Positions 6,266 to 56,967 of a stretch of 64,000 nt of DNA are shown here, in pieces (position 1 is the first letter of the stretch; every line of letters begins with the position of its first letter). The translations under genes and the position numbers were made by a program. The stretch covers positions 14,133 through 78,132 of the forward strand of contig PEWV01000075.1 in assembly GCA_002780005.1 (NCBI GenBank). The letters are read 5' to 3'. Origin of the DNA: Candidatus Aquitaenariimonas noxiae. GTDB taxonomy: Bacteria > Omnitrophota > Gorgyraeia > Aquitaenariimonadales > Aquitaenariimonadaceae. Under the pieces are notes generated by a model, which did no database searches, had not been told where the DNA came from, and worked only from the letters and a program-made list of their open reading frames with translations.

Positions 6266-6841
6266 TTATTTTTCTTCTGTTAAAAGATACATCGTCATAT
6301 TTATATCTGCCCTGAGTTCCTTTTTTCCTGATTCTTTAAGCATTTTTAGATATTCAACCGTTATAAGCTGCGGCAGATTTTCTTTCAAGGCCAAAAAAAA
6401 CTTACCCAATCCTTTATAGCTGCTGTAGGCGGTTACAAAAACTTGGCTCTTTTGGCAGTATTTTCCTTCTATCATTATTGGTTTCCCGTTTTTACTCAAA
6501 AACGGAATTTTAACTTCGGGCTTCATCGATACAACATTCAATCCGTATTTATGCGCTATATCCGAAATGGAACGAAGCGCGCCTTTTTCATCCGAAGGAA
6601 ATTTGGCATCCAGTTCATCGAGTTTAGTTTTCAGAATAGAAAATCCTTCGTCTATGCTTCTCCCTTTCCCTGTCATGGATTCAACTGCATTAATCTCACC
6701 TTCTGTTTCTTTAAATTCAGTCATAAGTACCTCAACCGAATTTTTTGCCGGCAGATATACAAAAACCAGAAATACTATAAACAAGGTCGCGCTTATTGAA
6801 ATGACAATTAATATTTTTTTCTGTCCTAAGGTGATATACAT
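6266..6841 (-). CDS. PilO-like type IV pilus inner-membrane assembly protein
   Basis: Single N-terminal TM, coiled-coil, then periplasmic domain; located between the pilMN fusion and PilP-like genes. Confidence 0.55.
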   Translation of the reverse strand: MYITLGQKKILIVISISATLFIVFLVFVYLPAKNSVEVLMTEFKETEGEINAVESMTGKGRSIDEGFSILKTKLDELDAKFPSDEKGALRSISDIAHKYGLNVVSMKPEVKIPFLSKNGKPIMIEGKYCQKSQVFVTAYSSYKGLGKFFLALKENLPQLITVEYLKMLKESGKKELRADINMTMYLLTEEK

Positions 6842-6843
6842 TT

Positions 6844-8598
6844 TTACCTCGCCAAAACTGAGCGTATTTCAAATTTCAGAACATCTTTTCCATCGTAACT
6901 TGCCTTACTCGATGAAGAGAGGCTCGTTGCATTAAAAAACGGGGATGCTTCTAATTTTTCCATAAATCCCATCAGATCGCCTTCCAAGTTTTGCGGCGCC
7001 GTAACAACATATCCGTTTAAAATCAATAAATTCTTTTCCTGATTGATCTCTAATGATTCCAATAAGCAGCTCGGAGGCGTAATATTGCTGAGCTCCTTCA
7101 ACACCCAGTCGGGCGGCATCTTATCGCGTTCTATTTGTTCAACAAGAGTTAGTTTTGAAGCAACTTTATTATTTAAATCGCTTATCGCGCCTATAGCTTC
7201 TAAATGAAGTCTCGCATTTTTAAGCCTATTTTTATAGTCATTCACTTCCGACCTAACTACTACTAGGGAGAACAGAAATACAACACCGAGCACCACGCCT
7301 ATGACCCTTAGGGACATTTTTTGCAGGGCTTCCGCTTTCTCGGTCTTGTATTCTTTAGGCAAGAAGCTCGGGCTTTTGCCAGCGCCTATCGCTGCGCCTG
7401 TGAGGTTGTTCAGTTGCGCCATACCTTTATTTCGCGCATCTTTATCTATATTTTGTTTCGTGGCAATAATATTCGTCAAGGATAGTTTTCTCACATTGCA
7501 TTTTAATTCGTTTTGCAAATATACATCCAGGCCTTTTAAATTTGAGCCTCCGCCTGTAAGAAATAAATTTTGCGGAAATTCGTCTTCGAATTTTGAAACA
7601 TAGTAATTTATGGATCTATTTATTTCCGATATTAGCCTCTCAAGGGCGGGCCTCATCAAAGATATGATCTGGCTTCCTTTAATACCGTCTTTCAGTACCT
7701 CTTCCGGGTCTCGGGGGATGCCGAACTCTATTTTCATTTCTTCGGCCTTCTGGGTTGTTAATTCTATTTTGCCGGCGTCCGATACTAGCGTCCCGCTCAT
7801 ACCCATAGTAAGCTGATCTGAACTGAAAGGCAGGTTTCGCAGGAAACTCAATTTGCACTCTTTGTAAATCAAAAATGTAGAGAATGTTGCTCCTATATCA
7901 AGGACCGAGGCTGTACCGCTTTTCGGAATTTCGAGCTTCTCTAAAACATACGAGAAGATATACGAGAAATTAAAAGGCATTAACTTTATGTCTACCACGT
8001 TTAGGCCTGCTTCTTTTATAGGCTTGGCGTACTTGTCTATAAAATCATTTTTTACGCACCCCACCATTATATCTTTTCTTTTCGCTCCGTCTTTATCGGT
8101 GTATTCACCTATGATTTGCCAATCGATTTGAGCCTGCTCTAAATCAAACGGCGCATCACCCTTAATTTCCCATTTGATGGCCTCTTCCATCTCTCTCTGG
8201 GGCATATTCGGCAAAGATATCCTCTTCATTATCACCGAATCTAAATCCTGTGCGTTGATTATAATATCTTTATCTAATATGGAATTAACAGTTATAAAAT
8301 TATTTATAAAATCGAGAATGGCTTTATTATTATCCTCTGAATCGGATGAGCCCAACTCTTTTATATCATACTGCAGAAGTTCAGGCATGTCTTTTGACAG
8401 GCAAAAGAGAGCGATTTTAAGGGTGCGACTTCCTATGTCTAAGGATAAAATTTTACCTTTTTCTTTAGAAAAGATGCCTGTCAGCTCAGGGTTTTTACGT
8501 TTACACAAATTACCGTAGCTTTTAATAAACTGGTCATACAACTTAGTGATTATCTGCACAGGATCATTTGGCAATTGGAATCTTTTACTTGAGATCAT
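6844..8598 (-). CDS. pilMN: PilM-PilN fusion protein (actin-like ATPase domain plus bitopic PilN domain)
   Basis: LSLDIGSRTLKIALF sugar-kinase/actin-like N-terminal domain. Internal TM (LRVIGVVLGVVFLFSLVVV) followed by a PilN-like region. Confidence 0.8.
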   Translation of the reverse strand: MISSKRFQLPNDPVQIITKLYDQFIKSYGNLCKRKNPELTGIFSKEKGKILSLDIGSRTLKIALFCLSKDMPELLQYDIKELGSSDSEDNNKAILDFINNFITVNSILDKDIIINAQDLDSVIMKRISLPNMPQREMEEAIKWEIKGDAPFDLEQAQIDWQIIGEYTDKDGAKRKDIMVGCVKNDFIDKYAKPIKEAGLNVVDIKLMPFNFSYIFSYVLEKLEIPKSGTASVLDIGATFSTFLIYKECKLSFLRNLPFSSDQLTMGMSGTLVSDAGKIELTTQKAEEMKIEFGIPRDPEEVLKDGIKGSQIISLMRPALERLISEINRSINYYVSKFEDEFPQNLFLTGGGSNLKGLDVYLQNELKCNVRKLSLTNIIATKQNIDKDARNKGMAQLNNLTGAAIGAGKSPSFLPKEYKTEKAEALQKMSLRVIGVVLGVVFLFSLVVVRSEVNDYKNRLKNARLHLEAIGAISDLNNKVASKLTLVEQIERDKMPPDWVLKELSNITPPSCLLESLEINQEKNLLILNGYVVTAPQNLEGDLMGFMEKLEASPFFNATSLSSSSKASYDGKDVLKFEIRSVLAR

Positions 8599-10391: not shown

Positions 10392-10991
10392 TTAAGAAAA
10401 TAGGTCCGAGACCTGTAGAATATTACGAAGCCTTATTTTTGTCCTGAAATAAACGGTATTGTTATTGGATGAGAGCGACATGTCAATTTGCACAAATCTT
10501 ATGTCAGTCGCCTGCGGGCTTACTAAAGGAGCTGGGATAACGTCTCCGTTCCCATCCAGGTATGAGAAGGTAAACGAGGAAACGTTTGAAACAAGCGTGT
10601 CGGCTGTGCCGTTATAGCTTCTTTCCAGATTTGATCCGTTAAGCTGGAATTGCATAGTATTATTATCTATGTCGACGAAACTATAGGAGGTAGCATTAGC
10701 TGTGATTACGCTTGTATTGTTTTTCAGACGACGTATCTCACGGCTCATTCTTCTAAAAGCTGTCTCGGCGCTTTGTGATAAATCTTTCCTATGTATGCTG
10801 TACTTATATGAGTCAACCAATTTAATAGCAACAGGGCCGCCGATACCTACTAATAGGCCTATGATAACTATGACCATTATTAGCTCGATCAGAGTAAACC
10901 CCGTTAGAGATGGGTTGTGTTCACCCATCGGACCTTTAATAGTGCTACGTTTAATGAAAAATTTACTTTTATCAATAATTATCTTGACCAT
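10392..10991 (-). CDS. minor (pseudo)pilin with prepilin-type N-terminal cleavage/methylation domain; 30-aa leader
   Basis: Leader ...EHNPSLTG then FTLIELIMVIVIIGLLVG (G-1, F+1, E+5). Confidence 0.8.
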   Translation of the reverse strand: MVKIIIDKSKFFIKRSTIKGPMGEHNPSLTGFTLIELIMVIVIIGLLVGIGGPVAIKLVDSYKYSIHRKDLSQSAETAFRRMSREIRRLKNNTSVITANATSYSFVDIDNNTMQFQLNGSNLERSYNGTADTLVSNVSSFTFSYLDGNGDVIPAPLVSPQATDIRFVQIDMSLSSNNNTVYFRTKIRLRNILQVSDLFS

Positions 10992-11091: not shown

Positions 11092-11568
11092 TCAGTTATT
11101 GGTTGCCAGCGTTACTGCCTCAACACTGGGAAATCCCGGGCGCGAAACTGTTATTTGGATTCTTTTATAGTTTGTAGAAGGGCTAGCGCTCAGCGTATTT
11201 AAATTTCCGCTGTCTACATAATAATAACTCACTTGATGTGAATAATCGCTGAAATTACCCGTGTACTCGGTCGGGCCCTCATTAACAACGTTAGAAAATC
11301 TCAAGTTCGTCACGCGTTCCAATTCGCTTTCTAATAGCGAAGACACTGCTATAAAATGTTCCGGTAAAAATGCGTTTTGCACTGATTCTATAATTACAAC
11401 CGAGACGGGAATTAATATAACAGAAGCAATAACGATCGTCATTATTAATTCTATAAGAGTAAGCCCTTTATCGGAGTTTCGATATTTCCCGCTTTTGCGG
11501 GATCCCGCACATGTATGTCCAAGGCTTGGTATAGGCGGGACGTATTTCGAATTTCGTATTTTTCTCAC
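11092..11568 (-). CDS. minor (pseudo)pilin; 34-aa leader
   Basis: ...NSDKG then LTLIELIMTIVIASVILIP. ATG overlaps the stop of the upstream pilin (ATGA), supporting this start. Confidence 0.75.
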   Translation of the reverse strand: MRKIRNSKYVPPIPSLGHTCAGSRKSGKYRNSDKGLTLIELIMTIVIASVILIPVSVVIIESVQNAFLPEHFIAVSSLLESELERVTNLRFSNVVNEGPTEYTGNFSDYSHQVSYYYVDSGNLNTLSASPSTNYKRIQITVSRPGFPSVEAVTLATNN

Positions 11569-12119
11569 TGTATATACACCCTGCCTGTTCCTCTCTCAAC
11601 CATTATATTTTTAGGACCTGTGATCGTTACGTTAGCCGGATTATTAAGCGCGGTACCACTGCCAGAACCGGCATCATAGCTATAGGGGTCCCCCCATTTG
11701 TCAAATGCCAGATCCTTATTGTTGTCATTAAAATAGACCTCTGTTATGTCAATGCCTTGGAATTCGCTCTCGTTAAACTGAACGGTGTAGTTATTTTTCG
11801 TTAATGGGTTGATCACTAAACTCCAATTTCCCGGGGTATCTTCTATGTAGACTGAGTAGCGATGTTGTGACGTGCTAAATGAGATCCGAGTCCTTTTTTG
11901 AATACTTACGGCTAGCGATTGCGCGTATCTTATGTCCGATTGAATTTTTTGCGCTGCCATATCCGAGCGCATAGCCGGCATATCGACCATCCTTGCGCTT
12001 GCCAGAACAGCCAAAATGCCGATAATGGCCATTACCATTATAAGCTCGAGAAGGGTAAACCCCGTTAGAAAGGCCCTACCCTTTTCATCAGGAATTGAAA
12101 TTCTGTTTGTTTCATCCAT
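11565..12119 (-). CDS. minor (pseudo)pilin (GspH/FimT-like); 19-aa leader
   Basis: ...GRAFLTG then FTLLELIMVMAIIGILA. Confidence 0.8.
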   Translation of the reverse strand: MDETNRISIPDEKGRAFLTGFTLLELIMVMAIIGILAVLASARMVDMPAMRSDMAAQKIQSDIRYAQSLAVSIQKRTRISFSTSQHRYSVYIEDTPGNWSLVINPLTKNNYTVQFNESEFQGIDITEVYFNDNNKDLAFDKWGDPYSYDAGSGSGTALNNPANVTITGPKNIMVERGTGRVYIQ

Positions 12120-12234: not shown

Positions 12235-12608
12235 TTACTGCTCGACAAATGAACCGTCGACATTGGAGTACGCATAAATGCCTCCGGCCGGACCAACGTA
12301 TTGGCTTGAGGCGTTTTTGGTCCACTCGCTTGTTATGCCGCCCTGGGAAAGAACCACAGTGAAAAACGCATTCGCCTTTGAGGCTGTCGAACTAGCAGCG
12401 GCAGCATCTAAATTGGCCGGCCATGCCTTATTTTGAGCGTAATAGGTATGGATACCTGCCCTGACGCCTCCTACCACACCCTTCTCGGCGGCTGATTTGG
12501 CATCGTTTTGCAGATCATAATATTTTGGGATCGCAACTGCTGCCAAAATACCCAATATAACAATAACCATGACTAATTCTATGAGCGTAAAACCCTTTTT
12601 CCGAACAT
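12235..12608 (-). CDS. pilA: major type IVa pilin (PilA-like), apparent +1 frameshift between SD-led ATG and the pilin frame
   Basis: GGAGGTAAAAATG at 12608 is 1 nt out of frame with the pilin body (KKGFTLIELVMVIVILGILAAVAIP...). One extra A in the A5 run (T5 at 12596-12600 on the plus strand) would give the classic leader MFGKKG/FTLIEL. ORF-track ORF 12235..12570 starts only at the internal Met. Confidence 0.6.
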
Positions 12609-12734
12609 TTTTACCTCCGTCAGGATTAATTTCAGCTCTTCATATTCTCTTTTTCTTTAACCGATCACCCCCCTAGCAAACCGTAATAAAAGTTATTTTC
12701 GGATCCAAAAATCGTTAAACCGCGTTTCGCCCTC

Positions 12735-12760
12735 ATATATTATCACTATATATTATCACT
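12735..12760. repeat. perfect tandem 13-mer ATATATTATCACT x2 spanning the pilC stop codon, about 125 nt upstream of the pilA ATG
   Basis: 12735-12747 and 12748-12760 are identical. Confidence 0.8.
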
Positions 12761-13967
12761 TAAACAATGACATCATATTCCACATCGGCAAAAATATGCC
12801 CAATGCCATGAATAGCACGCCGCAACCTAAGGCAAGTATGAGCACGGGTTCGATCAATGTCGTAAGATTTTTTACGGTATGGTCCGTTTGTGAGTCATAG
12901 TAATCAGATACGTATAAAAGCAACTCATCTACTTTACCCGTCGCCTCTCCGGAAGCGACCATTTGCACTACGATCGGAGGGAACATGCCGCACATTTTCA
13001 TGGGCTCAGACATACCCTTACCTTCATTCACGCTTACTTTTATAATATTAATGGCGCGGGCGATAACAACATTCCCTATGCTTCTTGAGACGAGATCCAA
13101 GATCTGCAATATGGGCACGCCGCTTTTTGTGAGGGTCCCTGTGATACGCGCAAACCTGGACATCGTGATCTTTGTAAAAAGCGGCCCGAAAACCGGAATT
13201 TTTAATTTCAGGCCGTCCCACCAGAACCTGCCGATCTCGGTTTTTACAAACCTGCTGAAACCGAATACAAAAGCTCCTATAACAGTAAGAATAAGCCACC
13301 AAAAATTGATAATAGCATAATGTATGCCTATAAGAACGCGCGTCGGCAAAGGCAGCTCTACATTAAACTGGCTGAATAAGCTCGCAAACCTGGGTATTAT
13401 AAACGTGGTCAAGATCATGAACGCTACTAAGAGCGCCGTTACTACCATAAGAGGATAGCGCGTAGCGGTCATTATCTTTGCCCTTGTCTCTTCTTCGTGC
13501 TCGCCAAGTATAGCGAGCCTGCTCAAGATCTCATCAAGCGTCCCGCTGACCTCTCCGGCCTTCACCATGCTGACATACAGACCATTAAAAACTCTCGGGT
13601 GCTTAGCCAAGGCATCCGAGAAATGCGAACCGGCTTCGATATCTTTTATTATACTCTCGATGGTTGCCTTTAAGATATCGCTACTACTCTGATCCCTGAT
13701 GGCGCTAAGGCTTGTCAAGAGCGGAAGGCCTGATTTCTGCAAAGTCACCAACTGCATCGTGAACATATTCAAGTCAGAAAATCTGACCCTTTTAAATCTC
13801 ATAATAAATTTATCTAAGCCGATCTCTCTTATTTTTTCTTTGATCGAAATAGGCACATAATTCATTTGCTTCAATTTGGAGCCGGCTAATTCTGCGTTAT
13901 CGGCTTCTATAATACCGATCGCCTGTTTTCCGAATTTGTCCCTGGCCTTATACTCAAAAATAGCCAT
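12756..13967 (-). CDS. pilC: type IV pilus platform protein PilC (GspF family)
   Basis: 403 aa; duplicated GspF domains; three TM segments. Confidence 0.9.
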   Translation of the reverse strand: MAIFEYKARDKFGKQAIGIIEADNAELAGSKLKQMNYVPISIKEKIREIGLDKFIMRFKRVRFSDLNMFTMQLVTLQKSGLPLLTSLSAIRDQSSSDILKATIESIIKDIEAGSHFSDALAKHPRVFNGLYVSMVKAGEVSGTLDEILSRLAILGEHEEETRAKIMTATRYPLMVVTALLVAFMILTTFIIPRFASLFSQFNVELPLPTRVLIGIHYAIINFWWLILTVIGAFVFGFSRFVKTEIGRFWWDGLKLKIPVFGPLFTKITMSRFARITGTLTKSGVPILQILDLVSRSIGNVVIARAINIIKVSVNEGKGMSEPMKMCGMFPPIVVQMVASGEATGKVDELLLYVSDYYDSQTDHTVKNLTTLIEPVLILALGCGVLFMALGIFLPMWNMMSLFK

Positions 13968-13968
13968 C

Positions 13969-15654
13969 TTATTCCTCTTCTGTCTTAGTTACCCTTAAAA
14001 CCTCTTCTACGGTCGTAATCCCTTCTTTTGCCTTTGATATGCCGTCGGAAAATAATGTGCCCATGCCTTTAGAGATCGCTATTTTTCTTATTTCGTCAGC
14101 CGAGGCCTTGGCGACTATAAGCTTTCTTATATCTTCGTCCATGATCAATAATTCAAATATGCCTATCCTGCCTGCAAAGCCTGTCCCCCTGCAAGACGCG
14201 CAGCCCTTTCCTCTATAAAATATCATTTTACCTTTAAGGCCCAGGTCTTTCAGCACTTCATCTGAAGGCGTGTGGTTTTCTTTGCATTTGGGACAAACGG
14301 CTCTTACAAGCCTTTGGCCCAGGATCCCCATAACAGAACTTGAAATCAAGAACGGTTCCACGCCCATATCTAAGAGCCTGGCAAGTGCGCTTGGGGCGTC
14401 GTTTGTATGTAGGGTAGAAAACACGAGATGCCCCGTAAGCGCCGCCTGGATCGAGATATCCGCAGTCTCCTTATCCCTTATTTCGCCGACCATAACAACA
14501 TCCGGGTCCTGCCTCAATATACTTCTAAGCCCTGCGGCGAACGTTAATCCGGCCTTTGGATTAACCTGCGTTTGCCTTATAAGAGGCAGCTCGTATTCTA
14601 CCGGGTCCTCAATAGTAATTATATTTTTTTCCATCGAATTGATCGTTGATAACGCGCCGTATAGAGTTGTCGTCTTGCCGCTGCCGGTAGGGCCTGTAAC
14701 CAATATTATCCCGTTTGGTTGATGAATAAGCTTCTCGAACTTTTTTAGGTCGCCTTTTGAGAGGCCAAGTTCGGGCAATCCCAATAGCGCCGTTGATTTA
14801 TCCAACAATCTCATAACGACATTTTCGCCGTGTATCGTCGGAAAACTTGAAACTCTTATATCGATATCGCGGTCTTCTTTCTTTAATTTGATCCGCCCGT
14901 CCTGCGGTTTTCTCTGTTCCGCTATATCCATCTTGGCTAAAATTTTTATCCTGGAAATAACCGCGCTCTGCAGGTGTTTCGGTATAACGTTTATCTCGTG
15001 CAAAATGCCGTCTATGCGATACCGTATCCTCACAGCCGTATCATCCGGTTCAATATGTATATCGCTAGCCCTATCCTTTACTGCCTGGGTGATCATCAAA
15101 TTAACCAATTTTATTATAGGCGGCTCGCCGGCCACCTCGCTTATATCTTTCAAGCCGCCCTTTGCCTTCGTTTCAAATTTCGCCTTATCGATATCTTTTA
15201 TTAATTCATCCACAGTTCCTATTACCCCGTAGTATGAATCCAAAACTTTCTGGATCCCCCGCTCACTCACCAATACGGTATCTACGGAATCTATTTTCGC
15301 CTTTAATCGTATTTCGTCAATCGCGATAATATCCTGAGGGTCAACCATTGCTAATGTAAGAGCATTGCCGATCTTAAATAACGGGACGGCCTTATGTTTT
15401 TTTGCCAGGGTTTCCGGAACAAGCTTTATCACCTCTTGATCTATTATGTAATCGGTCAGATCTATATAAGGAATGTCTAAGGTATCGGCAATGGTGCTCG
15501 CTATCTCTTCCTCGGTAATATAGCCTAATTTCTCGAGCGCCTTTTCCAGGGGAAGGCCCGTCTTTTTCACTTCCTCTCTGGCGCGTTCGATCTGGTCCCT
15601 AGTAATCAGGCCTTTTTTTATAAGTAATTCCATAGCTTCTTGGGTTTTTGCCAT
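13969..15654 (-). CDS. pilB: type IV pilus assembly ATPase PilB (GspE family) with GSPII_E_N/MshEN-like N-terminal domain
   Basis: Walker A GPTGSGKTTT; Asp/His boxes; C-terminal tetracysteine (CPKCK...CASCRGTG). N-terminus LLIKKGLITRDQIERAREE / LEKLGYITEEEIASTIADTL resembles MshEN repeats. Confidence 0.9.
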   Translation of the reverse strand: MAKTQEAMELLIKKGLITRDQIERAREEVKKTGLPLEKALEKLGYITEEEIASTIADTLDIPYIDLTDYIIDQEVIKLVPETLAKKHKAVPLFKIGNALTLAMVDPQDIIAIDEIRLKAKIDSVDTVLVSERGIQKVLDSYYGVIGTVDELIKDIDKAKFETKAKGGLKDISEVAGEPPIIKLVNLMITQAVKDRASDIHIEPDDTAVRIRYRIDGILHEINVIPKHLQSAVISRIKILAKMDIAEQRKPQDGRIKLKKEDRDIDIRVSSFPTIHGENVVMRLLDKSTALLGLPELGLSKGDLKKFEKLIHQPNGIILVTGPTGSGKTTTLYGALSTINSMEKNIITIEDPVEYELPLIRQTQVNPKAGLTFAAGLRSILRQDPDVVMVGEIRDKETADISIQAALTGHLVFSTLHTNDAPSALARLLDMGVEPFLISSSVMGILGQRLVRAVCPKCKENHTPSDEVLKDLGLKGKMIFYRGKGCASCRGTGFAGRIGIFELLIMDEDIRKLIVAKASADEIRKIAISKGMGTLFSDGISKAKEGITTVEEVLRVTKTEEE

Positions 15655-15696
15655 TTTGGTCTCCCAATAACATTTGATGCTTCGATGTTTCCCGGA

Positions 15697-16623
15697 TCAC
15701 ATGTTTTTCGGAAGCGTGAAAATAAAATTCGAGAATTTTCCTTTTTCCGATAAAACCCAGATTTTCCCCTTGTGGGCGTCAATAATGTTTTTCGCGATAG
15801 CCAGACCAAGCCCTATACCTGAAGATTTGAACTCTATATTGCCCGATGAATGTTTATCTATGTCGCCGATACCGTAGAAACTCTCAAATATGCTCCCCAA
15901 TTCATCTTTTGGTATACCTATACCGTTATCCTCTACCTCAACGCGTATATTATCTTCCTCATCTTTCGCCCGTATGGTTATTCTGCCCTTGTCCGGAGTA
16001 AATCTTATCGCATTAAGCAGAAGGTTTACCAACACTTGCCGCATACTGTTCCTGTCCATCATAACATGCGGTATGTCCCTTTCAATATCGACAATTATTT
16101 CCTGATTTCTTTTCTTAATAAAAGACATGATATCGCCGGCTGTCGATCTGATAATCACTTCTATAGATGAGGGCTGCAATCTTTTATCAAATCCGCTTGG
16201 AATGTCCAGATATATTTTCGAGAGATCGCTTTTTATTTCTTCCAATCTATTGCAATACTTAACCATTACATCCAGAGCGGTTTTCTGTTCTTCTGTCAGA
16301 GGCCCCAGCGATTTATCCGTGATTAAATTAACATAACCTTTTATAATAGTAATCGGTGTAGCGAGTTCATTTGAAATTGTAAAAGCTGCTTTGGACTTTA
16401 TTTCATGCAGCTTTTCTTTCTCGCCGTAAAGCCGCAGAATATTATATTTTTCTTCCATACTATCAAGCCAAAACAAAAAGAGTAACACGATCGCAAGCGC
16501 GACAAATAAATCCGCAGGCATGATTTGTACCTTTTGATAAACGAATATACTCGTAAGCCGAACCGTTAAAAGCAGGACGCCAACGGCAACTAACGCTACC
16601 TTACGTCTGGATTTTATATGCAT
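15697..16623 (-). CDS. membrane histidine kinase without extracytoplasmic sensor domain (2 TM, HisKA, HATPase_c)
   Basis: H-box ELATPITIIKGY; G-boxes DNGIGIP and GIGLGLAIAK. Confidence 0.8.
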   Translation of the reverse strand: MHIKSRRKVALVAVGVLLLTVRLTSIFVYQKVQIMPADLFVALAIVLLFLFWLDSMEEKYNILRLYGEKEKLHEIKSKAAFTISNELATPITIIKGYVNLITDKSLGPLTEEQKTALDVMVKYCNRLEEIKSDLSKIYLDIPSGFDKRLQPSSIEVIIRSTAGDIMSFIKKRNQEIIVDIERDIPHVMMDRNSMRQVLVNLLLNAIRFTPDKGRITIRAKDEEDNIRVEVEDNGIGIPKDELGSIFESFYGIGDIDKHSSGNIEFKSSGIGLGLAIAKNIIDAHKGKIWVLSEKGKFSNFIFTLPKNM

Positions 16624-16637
16624 TTTATCATCTCTGG

Positions 16638-17006
16638 CTATTTTCCTATTAATTCATGTATCTTAGAGATCAATACCGAAGGCTCAAAGGGCTTCGTTAT
16701 ATACCCATCGGCCCCGACCTCTTCACCAAGTTTCTTATCCGATTCCTGCGCCCTGGCCGTAAACATAAGTATGGGTATTTTCTTATATTTTTCATCAAAT
16801 TTAAGCATGCGGCAAACCTTGTATCCGTCAATTTTAGGTAACATCAAATCCAGTATAATCAGATCGGGCTTCTCTTTACGCGCCTTTTCAAGTGCCTCTT
16901 GGCCGTCGCCGGCTGTCAGCACAATATAGCCATTAGCCTGGAGCCTTAACTTAACCATTTCAACTAATTGAATTTCATCGTCCACTACCAAGATTTTTTT
17001 ACCCAT
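16638..17006 (-). CDS. stand-alone CheY-like response regulator receiver
   Basis: 122 aa; ILVVDDE ... LDLMLPKIDG ... T/K motifs; no output domain. Confidence 0.85.
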   Translation of the reverse strand: MGKKILVVDDEIQLVEMVKLRLQANGYIVLTAGDGQEALEKARKEKPDLIILDLMLPKIDGYKVCRMLKFDEKYKKIPILMFTARAQESDKKLGEEVGADGYITKPFEPSVLISKIHELIGK

Positions 17007-17410
17007 TATTTGTCTCGTTTTTTGGCCCCTTTATACTTATCGGCCATCCTTGAAGCACTAAATATATTAGCAAGTTCTTCTTTCAGGTCATTTGTCTTAA
17101 CAATGAAACCTGAGGCATCCAGCTTTTCGGCCAGATTAAATCTTTCCTCGTTGGAAAATGCCGTTACTATAAACACCGGCAAATTTTTGTCGCGCTTTCT
17201 TATCTTTTTTAACACCTGCAACCCGTTAAGGCCCGGCATCATTATATCAAGCAGCACGGCATCCGGTTTTTCATCTTTGATCTTTTCCAAAGCGCCTTTC
17301 CCGTCGCTAGCCGTAATCACATCATACCCGCTAGATTCTAATCTTAACTTTATCATTTCTACAAAATCAGGCTCGTCATCCACTACTAATATTTTTTTTC
17401 CCATGTTCAC
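17006..17410 (-). CDS. stand-alone CheY-like response regulator receiver
   Basis: 134 aa receiver only; start overlaps the upstream kinase stop. Confidence 0.85.
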   Translation of the reverse strand: MNMGKKILVVDDEPDFVEMIKLRLESSGYDVITASDGKGALEKIKDEKPDAVLLDIMMPGLNGLQVLKKIRKRDKNLPVFIVTAFSNEERFNLAEKLDASGFIVKTNDLKEELANIFSASRMADKYKGAKKRDK

Positions 17411-19161
17411 CTGCTTTTTTTATTTTTTAATTCCCGTTTACCTTTTCCCGGAATTCCCGTTCTGGCCTTATGCAATAACGCCTCATCCGTTATGGCGTCA
17501 TCCGGATAAGTGGCATTACCGAGCAGGACACGAATTTTCCCAAACCATTCTTTTTTGTTCTCCGATAAATAAGCATTGATCGCTTTTTCGATCCTATCCC
17601 TCACGACTTTAACGTTCTCTTTTGAGGTATCAACTAAAAAAACCATCAACTCGCCCGTATCTCTTAAGACGGTATCCGCCTGCCGCCTAAGCGAGCCGGC
17701 AACAACCTTTTCTATGCCCTTAAGTAAACTATGAAACTTATCGCAACCTAATCCTTTTTGCAACTTATCAAAATCTTTTATTCTAATAATTACTACCGAC
17801 AGAGGAATGTTCTTTTCGGATGTTTCCTTTATTTTATTATTAAGATACTCCCTGAACACGGACTCTACTTCCATTTTTGGAAGGTTAAAAGTAAATTCAG
17901 AGCCTTTATTAACTTCGCTCTCAACCATCACTGTTCCTTTATGCAGCTCGACGAGCTGTTTGACAATGCTAAGGCCGAGGCCCGTTCCTTTGGCCCCGGC
18001 GCCGGCAGCTCTATTAAACTGCTGAAACTTATTAAACACCCTCGGCAGGTCTTCTTTGGCAATACCTACGCCCGTGTCCGAAACCGAGATCTCCACTTCA
18101 TCCTTCTTGTCTTTCAGCTCGATTATAATCTTGCCTTTTTCAGGGGTGTATTTTATGGCATTCGAGATCAAATTATTCATAACCTGCGCTATTTTATCAG
18201 CGTCAATATACATGTTCACCTGTTCGTCGGGCACTAAAACTTTGAGCTCTTGGCCTTTCTTGTCAAACTCGGATTTCCATCTAATACACATATCCCTCAT
18301 CATAGCTGCAAAATCCACAAGGGCCCTTTTCAACTCGATCTTACCAGTCTCTATTTTTGATATGTCCAATAAATCATTTATAATACGCGCCAGTCTGTCA
18401 ACATTCTCTTTACTCATTGAAAGGACGTTTTTTTGTTTTTCGTTTATTTTTCCCAGCACCTCATCAAGGGTAAGCGCTAGGCCTTCTTTTATAATAGACA
18501 AGGGTGTACGCAACTCGTGAGAAACCGTAGAAACAAAATCGGACTTCAATTTATCTATTTTTTGGAGCTCTTTATTCTTTTGTTCCAGTTCTTTATAGAG
18601 AAGCTTTATGCCTTCGTTTGCCTTTTTAAGGCCCCATGCCTGCACTTCTAATTCATCCTTAGCGTCTTTAAGCGCCGTCATAGCATTTTTTCGTTCGGTT
18701 ATATCTTCGGCAACTTCAACGAAATGGGTAATTTCTCCTTTTGAATTTGTAATAGGCGAAATTGAGGCCATTTCCCAATATAATCCGCCGTTCTTCATCT
18801 TATTATGAAATTCTCCGCGCCATTCTTTACCCGAGATAATAACTTCCCATAATTCTTTATATACTTCGGGAGGCTGGTCGCCTGCTTTTAGAACACGCAG
18901 GTTTTTCCCCTTAACCTCCTTAAGCGCATAACCTGTCAGTTCGGTAAATTTAGGGTTCACGTATTCAAGATTGCCGTTTTTGTCTGTAATAACAACGGTG
19001 CTCGGGCTGTGCTGAACGGCGCGGGAGAGGATATAAACCTCTTCATTGAACTTATTCTTTTTAGAAAGGGCTGCTTCGAGCTTCCTTACCAGTTTTTGAA
19101 GAGTTTCTATTCTTTTGATAGGTTTTTTGTCTGGCTCTTTTTTATTTTTACTTTTTACCAT
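17407..19161 (-). CDS. PAS-sensor histidine kinase with C-terminal degenerate GGDEF-like domain
   Basis: Coiled-coil, PAS, HisKA (H-box SHELRTPLS), HATPase_c. C-terminal roughly 150 aa follow the GGDEF fold pattern, with RQAD (I-site-like RxxD) then DTGEL in place of GGDEF. Confidence 0.7.
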   Translation of the reverse strand: MVKSKNKKEPDKKPIKRIETLQKLVRKLEAALSKKNKFNEEVYILSRAVQHSPSTVVITDKNGNLEYVNPKFTELTGYALKEVKGKNLRVLKAGDQPPEVYKELWEVIISGKEWRGEFHNKMKNGGLYWEMASISPITNSKGEITHFVEVAEDITERKNAMTALKDAKDELEVQAWGLKKANEGIKLLYKELEQKNKELQKIDKLKSDFVSTVSHELRTPLSIIKEGLALTLDEVLGKINEKQKNVLSMSKENVDRLARIINDLLDISKIETGKIELKRALVDFAAMMRDMCIRWKSEFDKKGQELKVLVPDEQVNMYIDADKIAQVMNNLISNAIKYTPEKGKIIIELKDKKDEVEISVSDTGVGIAKEDLPRVFNKFQQFNRAAGAGAKGTGLGLSIVKQLVELHKGTVMVESEVNKGSEFTFNLPKMEVESVFREYLNNKIKETSEKNIPLSVVIIRIKDFDKLQKGLGCDKFHSLLKGIEKVVAGSLRRQADTVLRDTGELMVFLVDTSKENVKVVRDRIEKAINAYLSENKKEWFGKIRVLLGNATYPDDAITDEALLHKARTGIPGKGKRELKNKKSR

Positions 19162-44394: not shown

Positions 44395-44466
44395 AATATT
44401 TATTCTCCATCCCCATTAAGAAAACATAAGCCATATTCAGCAAACCAAAACGTTTCTAACGGGGTT
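44365..44466. repeat. inverted pair of the CCCCGTTAGAAAC / GTTTCTAACGGGG motif bracketing the hisF start codon
   Basis: 13-bp perfect inverted repeat: 44366-44378 (inside hisF codons 6-10) and 44452-44464 (5' UTR). Confidence 0.8.
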
Positions 44467-45085
44467 AGCATAGTTTGCAAAAATTCTCCAAAAATTTAAG
44501 GCCCAATTCTGAGCTTTTTTCTGGGTGAAACTGTACGCCCCAAATATTATCCTTATTTACTGCAGAGGCGAAATCTTTCCCATACTTGGTCGTGCCGATT
44601 ATAATTCCTTTATCATCCGGATCAACATAATAGGTGTGAACGAAGTAGAAATATGAATTATCAGCTATGTCTTCAAACAGCTGTGGACTGTGGACTGTGG
44701 ACTGTGGACTTTTTATTTTAACCTCGTTCCATCCCATATGCGGCGTCTTCAATTGCAGATCAAATCTCTTAACTTTTCCTTTTAATATATCGAGGCCTCT
44801 ATGAGTGCCATGCTCCTCGCTTTCCGTAAATAATAATTGCAAACCAAGGCATATGCCTAAAAAAGGTTTGCCGTCTTTAATGATCCTGGTTATAGCAGGC
44901 AGGATATCTAATTCCGTAAGGTTAGCCATGGCCCTGGCAAAGGCGCCTACCCCGGGCAGAACAACGGCTTTAGCGTCGCTCAAATCATTAGGATTATCCG
45001 TAACCTTTGCCTGGGCGCCTACCATCTGGAAAGCTTTACTGACGCTTTTCAGGTTTCCCATGCCATAGTCGATTATCGCTATCAT
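44465..45085 (-). CDS. hisH: imidazole glycerol phosphate synthase glutaminase subunit HisH
   Basis: Class I GATase with GICLGLQLL catalytic Cys and HPEKS. Confidence 0.9.
   Translation of the reverse strand: MIAIIDYGMGNLKSVSKAFQMVGAQAKVTDNPNDLSDAKAVVLPGVGAFARAMANLTELDILPAITRIIKDGKPFLGICLGLQLLFTESEEHGTHRGLDILKGKVKRFDLQLKTPHMGWNEVKIKSPQSTVHSPQLFEDIADNSYFYFVHTYYVDPDDKGIIIGTTKYGKDFASAVNKDNIWGVQFHPEKSSELGLKFLENFCKLC
44682..44709. repeat. perfect 4 x 7-nt tandem repeat TGTGGAC inside hisH (encodes SPQSTVHSPQ)
   Basis: 44682-44709 is TGTGGAC x4 exactly. Confidence 0.9.
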
Positions 45086-54356: not shown

Positions 54357-55931
54357 CTAACCTGAAAAACATACAATTTTTTGCGATACTACATCCGATA
54401 CTATTTTTAAGTCCCTGCCTTCTGCATCGTAGACGCTGACAACGTCGTTATATGCGGCTGCCTTAGGCATTAGTTTCATAAATAAATTTTTAGACTTTGA
54501 GAACCATTTATTATTCAATGCGACTTTTTCTTTTTGAGGAAATAACGCAACATAGAATATGTTCGTCTCCACAAGGTCCTGGAAAAAATGCGTTCCGAAG
54601 GATAATTCAGGCATGAGATTTCCGCCGGAAAAAGCGACTTCCACAAGCACGGCTATATTGTTTATCTCGGCAAACTTGACCGGTACGCCCAGGGACGGGG
54701 TTGTCGTGCCCCATCTCCCCGGCCCCATAAGAAGTGTTGGTAATTTTTCTCTGTCTTCTATATTTTTATTCAGCGTTCCTACTATGCGCGCGACTTCATA
54801 CTGGTCGGACAATACAAGCTTACCGTACTTCTCCGGATCGACACATATAATTCTTTTGATTTCCTGAGATATATTGCCGCCTAAAAAATATCCGTGCGAT
54901 TCAAAAAGTATCTTTTCCCTGCTTATGCTGCCAGGTATATCAACCTTACAGCCGATCCTTCTTGTCTGCAGGGGGCGGCATTGCAGCAGGTTTATCTTGA
55001 AGGCGTTGTTCTTTGTAAAGTTTACGGTAAATTCTATTTCAATAGGATAGCGGTAATTCTTTTCGATCGTCACAAGTATTTTCCTGAAGGAATCTGCCAA
55101 CGTATTATAGTCGAATACCTTGTCGAGTGTCAATATCCAATATTCCTTATCTCCCGCGCCTCGATCGTTCATCATGCGCATGGATTCATAATCTTTTACC
55201 GCCACGCGGCTTGTATCTCTGTAAGTCTTCTCGCTTACAAGTCTTTCGAACGGAACAGTTTGGAAAACATTTTCTTTTGTATTTATGAGATCTACTTCGT
55301 GCTGTGAGAATTTCCTTAAATCATCCTTCTCCGCGTACGGCCTTCTTAAAGGATCGTCAAGCGCAACCATTCTCGGGTAATCACCCTCTACGCGATTGAC
55401 CGCCCTTGTGCCTAACCCGAACACCAGTCTAAGCATACCTGCCTTCGGGTCCATATTTTCATTCCAGACATATGTATTATGGGACACGCCGACGCCGGCA
55501 AGGTCCGGAAAAAAATAATTTTTATGATGGGCCCCGGAAACGCGCTGCACCAGGAGCGCCATCTGTTCATCTAATTTATCCAAACCCCTCTGTTTTCTGT
55601 ATACGAGGGCATCTTCGCTCATCGTGCTTGCATAAATTCTTTTTACGGCCTCTGCAAACTGTATATATCTCTGCTCCGGCGTGCCCTGATTTGCCAAAAA
55701 TATGCTTTCGTATTTACCGGCAAATGCGTTCCCGAAGCCATCCTCCAGAAGAGAGCTCGAGCGTATTATAATAGGAGATGAGCCGAAATACTCCACGATC
55801 TGCTGAAAGCTTTCCATTATATCATCGGAAAATACGCCGTAAAGCATCTTTTCTTTTAAGATCTTTGCGATATTAAAATATCCATCCTCGGTCTTCTGCT
55901 GCATACGCAGTTTCCACCATCGATTTTGCAC
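54357..55931 (-). CDS. PEP/pyruvate-binding (PPDK_N, ATP-grasp-like) domain protein, C-terminal portion; likely continuous with the upstream ORF via frameshift
   Basis: IIIRSSSLLEDGFGNAFAGKYES matches the VRSSATAED..SFAGQ signature of the PEP synthase/PPDK N-terminal domain. GTG start overlaps the upstream ORF by 59 nt in another frame. Confidence 0.6.
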   Translation of the reverse strand: MQNRWWKLRMQQKTEDGYFNIAKILKEKMLYGVFSDDIMESFQQIVEYFGSSPIIIRSSSLLEDGFGNAFAGKYESIFLANQGTPEQRYIQFAEAVKRIYASTMSEDALVYRKQRGLDKLDEQMALLVQRVSGAHHKNYFFPDLAGVGVSHNTYVWNENMDPKAGMLRLVFGLGTRAVNRVEGDYPRMVALDDPLRRPYAEKDDLRKFSQHEVDLINTKENVFQTVPFERLVSEKTYRDTSRVAVKDYESMRMMNDRGAGDKEYWILTLDKVFDYNTLADSFRKILVTIEKNYRYPIEIEFTVNFTKNNAFKINLLQCRPLQTRRIGCKVDIPGSISREKILFESHGYFLGGNISQEIKRIICVDPEKYGKLVLSDQYEVARIVGTLNKNIEDREKLPTLLMGPGRWGTTTPSLGVPVKFAEINNIAVLVEVAFSGGNLMPELSFGTHFFQDLVETNIFYVALFPQKEKVALNNKWFSKSKNLFMKLMPKAAAYNDVVSVYDAEGRDLKIVSDVVSQKIVCFSG

Positions 55932-56967
55932 TATATAAGAATAAAATATATCCGAACCTATCTATATAGAACGAGTCGTGCAGTTCCGAGAGTTTTTTCC
56001 AATCAAGAGATTTATCTTTCGATAGTATTTTTCTGGCCAAAAGCATGCCTACGCTTTTCCCTCCGATAAAACCCGTTCCTATCAGCCTGTATTTTATATC
56101 TACGAGCTCCTCAAGCGAAAAATTTTGTATCGCCAAGGATAAGATCTTCTTATTCTTGGTCACCATTATGCTCGATAGCTTCTTTATCATATCTTTTATC
56201 TTCTCTTTTTTCGCAGGACTTTTTACAAGCTCCTCCGCATCAATGAATAAGCGGTCCCAGTAATCGTGATTTCTCTTGGCGTTCTCCGCTCCTTTTTCGC
56301 GAATATAAGAGAGTATTTTTACGGCGTTAACGCTGTCGGTAATGGGTATAAACCTTTCGTTCTTCTTTTGGTGCGGAAGGAACATTGTCGGCGAATACCG
56401 GTTCCATACTTTAAGCGGGTGTATATACAAGCTACCCTCGCAATGGTACACATCCATCAAGAGCTGAGTAGTTTCGCGTATGCTGGCTATGGACTTGAAG
56501 GAATGGTTATTGCGCAATATAGAAAAATATGTAATAGTCTTAAGTTCGTAAAGGTACGGGCATGTAACCATAAAAAAGTTTCCTGTCATAAGATCGGTAG
56601 CCCACGCCGAAAGGAGTTCTGACAGGCAATCAAACACATAATACGCCCCTTCGCCTTCCTGGGTAATAATATTATTTACCCTTGTGGTAAAATATTCGAA
56701 TCCGGCATTGGCATTAAGTTCGTATCGTTTTATCTTTTTTGAGGGCTTAAGCAGTTCCTTGTGTGATGCAAACCGCATGTATATAACTTTCTTATTCTCG
56801 CCAAGCGCCTGACGCACAAACGGCGTTACAAGGTCAATATAATCTTTTATATCGTCTATCTGCCAGACTACATTGTCCCCGGTCCTCAAGCCCGTGATCA
56901 CGCTATCCAAACCTTTTATGCCTGTACTTATCATATCAATAACCCTTCGCCCTTCGATTCCGCACAA
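55873..56967 (-). CDS. N-terminal portion: degenerate RecA/KaiC-like domain followed by the start of the PPDK_N domain (GGKSVGMLLARKIL)
   Basis: TGIKGLDSVITGLRTGDNVVWQ resembles KaiC/RadA N-terminus but lacks Walker A. C-terminal FIGGKSVGMLLARKI matches the LVGGKNASLGEM start of PPDK_N, which continues in the downstream ORF. Confidence 0.5.
   Translation of the reverse strand: MCGIEGRRVIDMISTGIKGLDSVITGLRTGDNVVWQIDDIKDYIDLVTPFVRQALGENKKVIYMRFASHKELLKPSKKIKRYELNANAGFEYFTTRVNNIITQEGEGAYYVFDCLSELLSAWATDLMTGNFFMVTCPYLYELKTITYFSILRNNHSFKSIASIRETTQLLMDVYHCEGSLYIHPLKVWNRYSPTMFLPHQKKNERFIPITDSVNAVKILSYIREKGAENAKRNHDYWDRLFIDAEELVKSPAKKEKIKDMIKKLSSIMVTKNKKILSLAIQNFSLEELVDIKYRLIGTGFIGGKSVGMLLARKILSKDKSLDWKKLSELHDSFYIDRFGYILFLYSAKSMVETAYAAEDRGWIF

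Follow-up and report, generated by a model that had tools for sequence, protein, structure and literature searches.

The window, by which we mean the whole 64,000-nucleotide stretch of DNA analysed, carries a type IV pilus operon on its minus strand. The genes follow one another in the order pilB, pilC, pilin, three minor pilins, a 563-aa protein (family unassigned), a PilM-PilN fusion and a PilO-like protein. The PilB/GspE-type ATPase (13969..15654) has an N-terminal MshEN (c-di-GMP-binding) domain and matched PF00437 with E = 1e-139, together with PF05157, NF053729 and TIGR02538 (639 bits). The PilC/GspF platform protein (12756..13967; PF00482 T2SSF, E = 2e-56; TIGR02120, 354 bits) lies directly upstream of the pilin. 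The GspH/ComGD-like minor pilin (11565-12119) is accompanied by two further minor pilins (11092-11568 and 10392-10991), with N_methyl, GspH and TIGR02532 matches found across the three. The 584-aa PilM-PilN fusion (6844-8598; PF11104 and PF05137) and the PilO-like protein (6266-6841; weak PF04350 match) represent the alignment subcomplex. The pilin is encoded with type IV filament assembly machinery; neither a prepilin peptidase (PilD) nor a secretin family match was found in a scan of ten operon proteins. All Omnitrophota classes are reported to have type IVa pilus clusters commonly (PMC10066038).

At the pilin start site, all features were located on the minus strand. A Shine-Dalgarno sequence, GGAGG (12614..12618), was read directly 5 nt before the pilin ATG (12606..12608), a start codon that is in frame with a 124-aa prepilin in 16/16 independent contigs. 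Translation of the deposited sequence from this ATG gave only MFGKRVLRS followed by the stop TAG (12581-12579), a nine-codon ORF spanning 12579..12608. The frameshifting lesion is an A5 run (12596..12600), located by regular expression and found by BLAST comparison to be one A short of the A6 present elsewhere. The remaining prepilin coding sequence (12235..12594) lies in the -1 frame, one base behind the frame of the ATG, where it reads ...KKG|FTLIELVMVIVILGILAAVAIPKYY... and ends at TAA 12237-12235. It comprises the Gly-1 codon (12594-12592), the Phe+1 codon (12591-12589), Glu+5, a hydrophobic alpha-1 helix and a small C-terminal domain. When one A was added, the reading became MFGKKG|FTLIEL..., an exact match to a 124-aa database protein (P0001). 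A preliminary description of this DNA had reported the Shine-Dalgarno sequence and ATG with a stop after nine codons, and had proposed that one A inserted into the A5 run restores the prepilin MFGKKG|FTLIELVMVIV; both observations were confirmed, the first as GGAGG-N5-ATG and the second through its identity to P0001.

The deposited record annotates only an ORF that begins at an internal Met (12235-12570; 111 aa, PIU40868.1), because the missing A sets the start codon out of frame. PIU40868.1 is identical to the 111-aa ORF and is entitled [quoted passage not shown] (P0121); its NCBI contig measures 99.6 kb. Between the upstream TGA (12642-12640) and Gly-1, the pilin frame contains no ATG, GTG or TTG, and its sole near-cognate start is ATT 12630-12628. 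The GGAGG is conserved in two relatives (L040 and L041), and the relatives begin at the equivalent ATG. The base just 5' of GGAGG (12619, minus strand) is C in the window and A in 11/23 loci; the A allele extends the Shine-Dalgarno sequence to AAGGAGG, and the two haplotypes coexist across samples.

The repaired pilin, read with the additional A, scored 31.4 bits against PF07963 (cut-off 21.2) and 35.1 bits against TIGR02532 (cut-off 16.3), and no equivalog model reached its cut-off. The GspG equivalog TIGR01710 gave 45.1 bits, below its cut-off of 88.85, and aligned over positions 1-70 of 134 only. In a search of the family profile against solved structures, MshA was the best match (E = 1e-14), followed by PilE, geopilin and PilA, and a solved GspG chain was matched with E = 7e-5 only. 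The pilin has more than 7,000 homologues, of which the closest named ones come from Candidatus Omnitrophota/Omnitrophica and are mostly 119-124 aa long. The family alignment (A1) revealed a conserved N-terminus, M-x(0-4)-[KR][KR]-G|FTLIEL. The features of a prepilin, namely a basic leader, Gly-1, Phe+1, Glu+5, a hydrophobic helix and a contiguous start, are all found in the repaired protein and the A6 population; the window itself contains the prepilin motif, but a 1-nt deletion parts it from the ATG.

The features used to recognize a type IVa major pilin were also found, since the leader has 6 aa (fewer than 10), the alpha-1 region is similar, the protein is small and its gene is the first pilin gene after pilC. 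Like the type IVa major pilins MshA, PilE, PilA and geopilin, the protein has a short basic leader ending in Gly, Phe+1, Glu+5 and a hydrophobic alpha-1 helix, and it is encoded beside PilB (with its MshEN domain), PilC, minor pilins and PilM/N/O. Unlike them, the Crystal Geyser pilin is small, with 118 aa in its mature form, and has no cysteines, and its gene is frameshifted in the deposited record. Because the mature pilin contains no cysteine, it has no C-terminal disulfide-bonded D-region. The preliminary label of a type IVa-class prepilin and probable major pilin is reasonable in view of the PF07963 and TIGR02532 matches, the MshA/PilE profile matches and the operon context, the major role being suggested by gene position and family.

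Several minor features of the protein were recorded. Many relatives have a conserved Cys pair, ACS..N.CF, and the pilin of this population has Ala/Ser...Ala-Phe in its place (A1). Aromatic residues (F/Y/W) make up 11% of the mature pilin, at positions 1, 24, 25, 50, 51 and 57. The protein partly resembles the published 'e-pilin' criteria, although its largest aromatic gap, of 25 residues, exceeds their 22-aa limit. An AlphaFold2 model of the repaired pilin was of low confidence (mean pLDDT 62, pTM 0.31) and showed nothing beyond a long helix at the N-terminus and a small domain at the C-terminus; the globular domain of the pilin had no confident match.

For comparison, we used 36 loci from JGI, ENA and Logan assemblies, which correspond to 26 distinct contigs and 360 kb of non-redundant sequence. 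These contigs belong to the same population, cover every base of the window and share 99.9-100% identity with it. Identical proteins flank the pilin in numerous metagenome assemblies from groundwater, among them SRR1534154 of PRJNA229517 (Crystal Geyser, Utah). The run is A6 in 16/16 distinct contigs (23/23 loci), none having A5 or A7, and A5 in the window. All 16 of these contigs carry a called 124-aa gene, MFGKKG|FTLIEL..., and several show 0 mismatches to the window over 4-12.5 kb, differing from it by this one base only. The protein clusters gave the same picture, with the 124-aa form on 15 contigs and the 111-aa form on only one, the NCBI MAG. DNA-pattern scans, first gapped and then exact, gave no match in two collections (genome_contigs and metagenome_contigs) that do not contain this population. 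An exact look-up of the 111-aa product also returned no match in a gene-position index from which the window's own record is absent, and is weaker evidence than the clusters. Relatives with an MF[GR]KKG leader have an A7 run at the same site, which is read in frame. The check suggested in the preliminary description, of the A5/A6 length in independent assemblies, was thus carried out on consensus sequences and returned A6 throughout. Because 16/16 contigs have A6, the natural population has an intact, in-frame pilin, and the A5 run is private to the record.

The 64 kb of the window contain 0 private SNPs, as at no variable site (of 24) do all the other contigs disagree with it, and 2 private indels, both frameshifting. 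The A5 lesion is the sole indel within about 43 kb either side. The second private frameshift is a 4-bp tandem duplication, ATAG to ATAGATAG (55958..55961, minus strand), which is absent from 5/5 independent contigs. It splits an 857-aa PPDK_N-domain gene (PEP-utilising enzyme family) into ORFs 55873-56967 and 54357-55931, and the 5/5 independent contigs call a single 857-aa gene at this site. The duplication is relevant to record quality and has no bearing on the pilus. The other contigs combined have 15 private SNPs and 1 private indel, against 0 and 2 in the window (Fisher p = 0.02). With no private SNP and two private frameshifting indels, the window's private differences are unlike natural divergence.

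One comparison contig (L023; ERZ27293391 k141_891906) carries a private 7-bp deletion of its own, equivalent to window positions 44681-44687, as a result of which a 206-aa glutamine amidotransferase (PF00117; ORF 44465-45085) is shortened to 137 aa. The window's record is therefore not alone in having frameshifting indels of its own.

We consider that the record-specific deletion at the A5 run, in an otherwise intact pilin gene, probably stems from an error of consensus or local assembly, or from a minority allele that the assembly captured. The population gene encodes a 124-aa prepilin, MFGKKG|FTLIELVMVIV..., started by GGAGG-N5-ATG, in which the A6 run arises from the Lys-Lys pair of the leader (GGA AAA AAG GGT = Gly-Lys-Lys-Gly). 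The MAG record lacks one A of this A6, which puts the start codon out of frame and led to the calling of the 111-aa fragment. The base may have been lost by assembler error, or by the assembler following a minority allele, in an unpolished, low-coverage IDBA_UD assembly of Illumina reads. The Crystal Geyser MAGs were assembled with IDBA_UD from 150-bp Illumina reads and curated by scaffold GC, coverage and taxonomy; no read-level error correction was found described for them. Omnitrophica bins of ~41-42% GC have 8-12x coverage according to their bin names, and the coverage of the window itself is estimated from these names.

Chen et al. (bioRxiv 10.1101/808410) report that IDBA_UD assemblies are prominently affected by local assembly errors, of which they counted 13 in a single 1.13-Mb genome; the defining mark of such an error is a site that lacks perfect read support. 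The present case resembles those errors in two respects. The assembly is likewise an IDBA_UD assembly of Illumina reads with no read-level polishing described, and the window has small, private, gene-breaking indels absent from assemblies of the same population, known here from consensus only. Against an artefact, Illumina reads rarely miscall an A6 run. The preliminary description had listed a homopolymer sequencing error among its readings, and this is the branch now favoured, in so far as A5 is private and 16/16 contigs have A6; the technical cause itself is what we infer, and we regard it as likely, by a fair margin short of certainty, instead of a real allele.

The alternative that survives best is that A5 is a real allele, dominant or abundant in the source sample, which would represent a spontaneous loss of pilin function, possibly favoured by selection against piliation, and at the extreme the OFF state of a slipped-strand switch. 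We regard this as rather unlikely. A one-unit homopolymer contraction at the 5' end of a surface-filament gene has the geometry of translational phase variation, and in the relatives an A7 run is retained here. The second private indel of the record, a tandem duplication, is of the replication-slippage type and not a typical sequencing error. De Bruijn-graph assembly and base calling do not typically produce 4-bp tandem duplications, so that both private indels could be alleles truly present in the reads of the sample. The 7-bp deletion of L023 indicates that frameshift alleles, or errors, circulate in these data. However, the 16/16 consensus sequences come from many samples and dates and all have A6, and two private indels without any private SNP in 64 kb would be odd for a diverged sub-lineage.

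Were A5 a true allele, the major pilin subunit would simply carry a null mutation of an ordinary kind. The leader, Gly-1, Phe+1 and Glu+5 are needed for processing by prepilin peptidase and for pilin assembly. The product from the internal Met has none of them, so that the allele, if present in cells, would be expected from general pilin biology to be null.

The length and setting of the A run argue against both a real allele and a designed switch. The coding strand of the window has 135 runs of A6 or longer (97 A6, 30 A7 and 8 A8), and all the other runs agree with the independent contigs. Lys is preferentially encoded by AAA, and 97/147 Lys-Lys pairs in the window are encoded as AAAAAA or AAAAAG, so that the tract follows from Lys-Lys coding. 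Phase variation by simple sequence repeats is known from the poly-G tracts of Neisseria pilC and the poly-G genes of Campylobacter. The pilin is like such pilus and surface genes in having a mononucleotide tract in its 5' coding region where one unit toggles the frame, A6 giving the full prepilin and A5 the nine-codon ORF. It is unlike them in having a tract of no more than A6, which Lys-Lys codon usage explains and which is invariant in length in the 16 population consensus sequences, A5 being found in this record alone. The wild-type A6 and the A7 of relatives also fall short of hypermutable length, as the cut-offs derived from experimentally phase-variable loci are 7 or more for poly-G/C and 10 or more for poly-A/T (PhasomeIt; PMC6321876). 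A designed phase-variation switch at the A-tract is therefore a reading that the sequences leave unsupported, and the slipped-strand ON/OFF switch raised in the preliminary description was not upheld.

A related pilin (P0075), 69% identical and present on 7 contigs, is also called from an internal Met. Three of its loci (L037-L039) were fetched, from JGI samples 3300009311, 3300009314 and 3300009431. In all three, (CGCAATA)x3, a heptamer repeat, separates the ATG from the G|FTLIEL codons (1443-1475 in L037). One or four copies would be in frame and give MRRNTHDG|FTLIEL..., and the three copies observed are out of frame; the repeat number is below the usual cut-offs. An ON form of P0075 was not found in the cluster listing or in a check of P0015 (127 aa), which was considered as the one-copy form and rejected as a different protein. 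Because the P0075 frameshift is common to multiple contigs, it is real, and because it occurs at the level of a population, leader-region inactivation of this pilin family does occur naturally. The repeat may represent either a repeat-driven OFF state or a pseudogene.

The out-of-frame leader of this related lineage lends something to the idea of a real A5 allele, and it is the sole support for a switching reading of the window's pilin. According to that reading, A5 would be the OFF state of low-rate slipped-strand switching, and, taken together with the P0075 repeat, ultra-small and possibly host-attached Omnitrophota would switch their major pilin through leader-region repeats. We consider this very improbable.

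Recoding was evaluated as a further alternative, in which the A5 run is functional and the full prepilin is produced by programmed -1 frameshifting (a P-site tRNA-Lys slip on A-AAA-A) or by transcriptional slippage. A slip of tRNA-Lys from AAA (12599-12597) to AAA (12600-12598) would re-pair perfectly and give MFGKKG|FTLIEL, and a real Shine-Dalgarno sequence sits 13 nt upstream of the A run. This distance is close to the spacing at which a Shine-Dalgarno-like element stimulates -1 shifting in E. coli dnaX. The known A-rich -1 sites are A AAA AAG in dnaX and A AAA AAC in IS1. The pilin site is like these in having an A run decoded by tRNA-Lys and an upstream Shine-Dalgarno sequence at a comparable distance; unlike them, it has no canonical heptamer and no downstream structure, and its orthologues are in frame. 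The sequence A AAA AGG does not fit the X XXY YYZ pattern of a tandem-slip heptamer, which leaves a P-site slip only. The out-of-frame layout is not conserved, as the same population (16/16 contigs) and the relatives are in frame. The A5 run is also much shorter than the A runs on which RNA polymerase slips efficiently.

Two possible stimulators of frameshifting were rejected. A hungry-codon pause is not expected at AGG because this is a common codon (265/851 Arg codons in the window), and shuffled sequence folds just as well as the 97 nt downstream (z = -0.41). At best, trace leakiness from a mutant allele would result. Programmed recoding at the A5 run is, on these sequence comparisons, effectively excluded, and we give the functional reading hardly any credence. 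The preliminary description had also allowed for a requirement for +1 frameshifting; the direction is wrong, as the equivalent of a base insertion is a ribosomal -1 shift, in which one base is re-read, and with an unconserved layout and no stimulatory structure the requirement itself was rejected.

The last alternative, translation of the A5 record from ATT 12630-12628 to give the leader INPDGGKNVRKKG|F, has a negligible probability: ATT is the only near-cognate codon in the interval and has a weak AAGAG 5 nt upstream, but no ATG, GTG or TTG is available in the pilin frame, relatives conserve the strong GGAGG-N5-ATG as their start, and ATT cannot be the normal start of the gene because it is out of frame with the pilin in the A6 population.

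Returning to the record-specific deletion, the A5 feature is most likely not biological and serves mainly as a data-quality flag. In the deposited MAG, and through it in NCBI and UniRef, the normal major prepilin of the organism is represented by the truncated PIU40868.1; some 43 kb from it, the same record also splits the 857-aa gene. Arguments for attachment and host-dependent lifestyles in Omnitrophota have drawn on inventories of their pili (PMC10066038); an inventory of this kind based on the deposited record would overlook this pilin or score it wrongly. The A5 run would be of biological interest only if reads showed A5/A6/A7 mixtures.

The regulatory surroundings of the pilus genes were also inspected. 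Upstream of the pilin, no sigma-54-type GG-N10-GC promoter was found, and there were only weak sigma-70-like matches. The pilC-pilin intergenic region contains a perfect tandem 13-mer, AGTGATAATATAT x2 (12735-12760, minus strand), which begins at the pilC stop and overlaps a sigma-70-like match, ATGTCA-17-TATAGT; this repeat may bind a regulator or serve as a promoter element. Ahead of the operon lie genes for a histidine kinase, two response regulators and a PAS-HisKA-GGDEF protein (window 13969-19161, the ATPase gene included). The MshEN domain of the ATPase and these upstream signalling genes suggest c-di-GMP control of piliation, as in MSHA-type pili. Across the 64 kb, nearly all genes lie on the minus strand, and the GC skew is uniformly negative.
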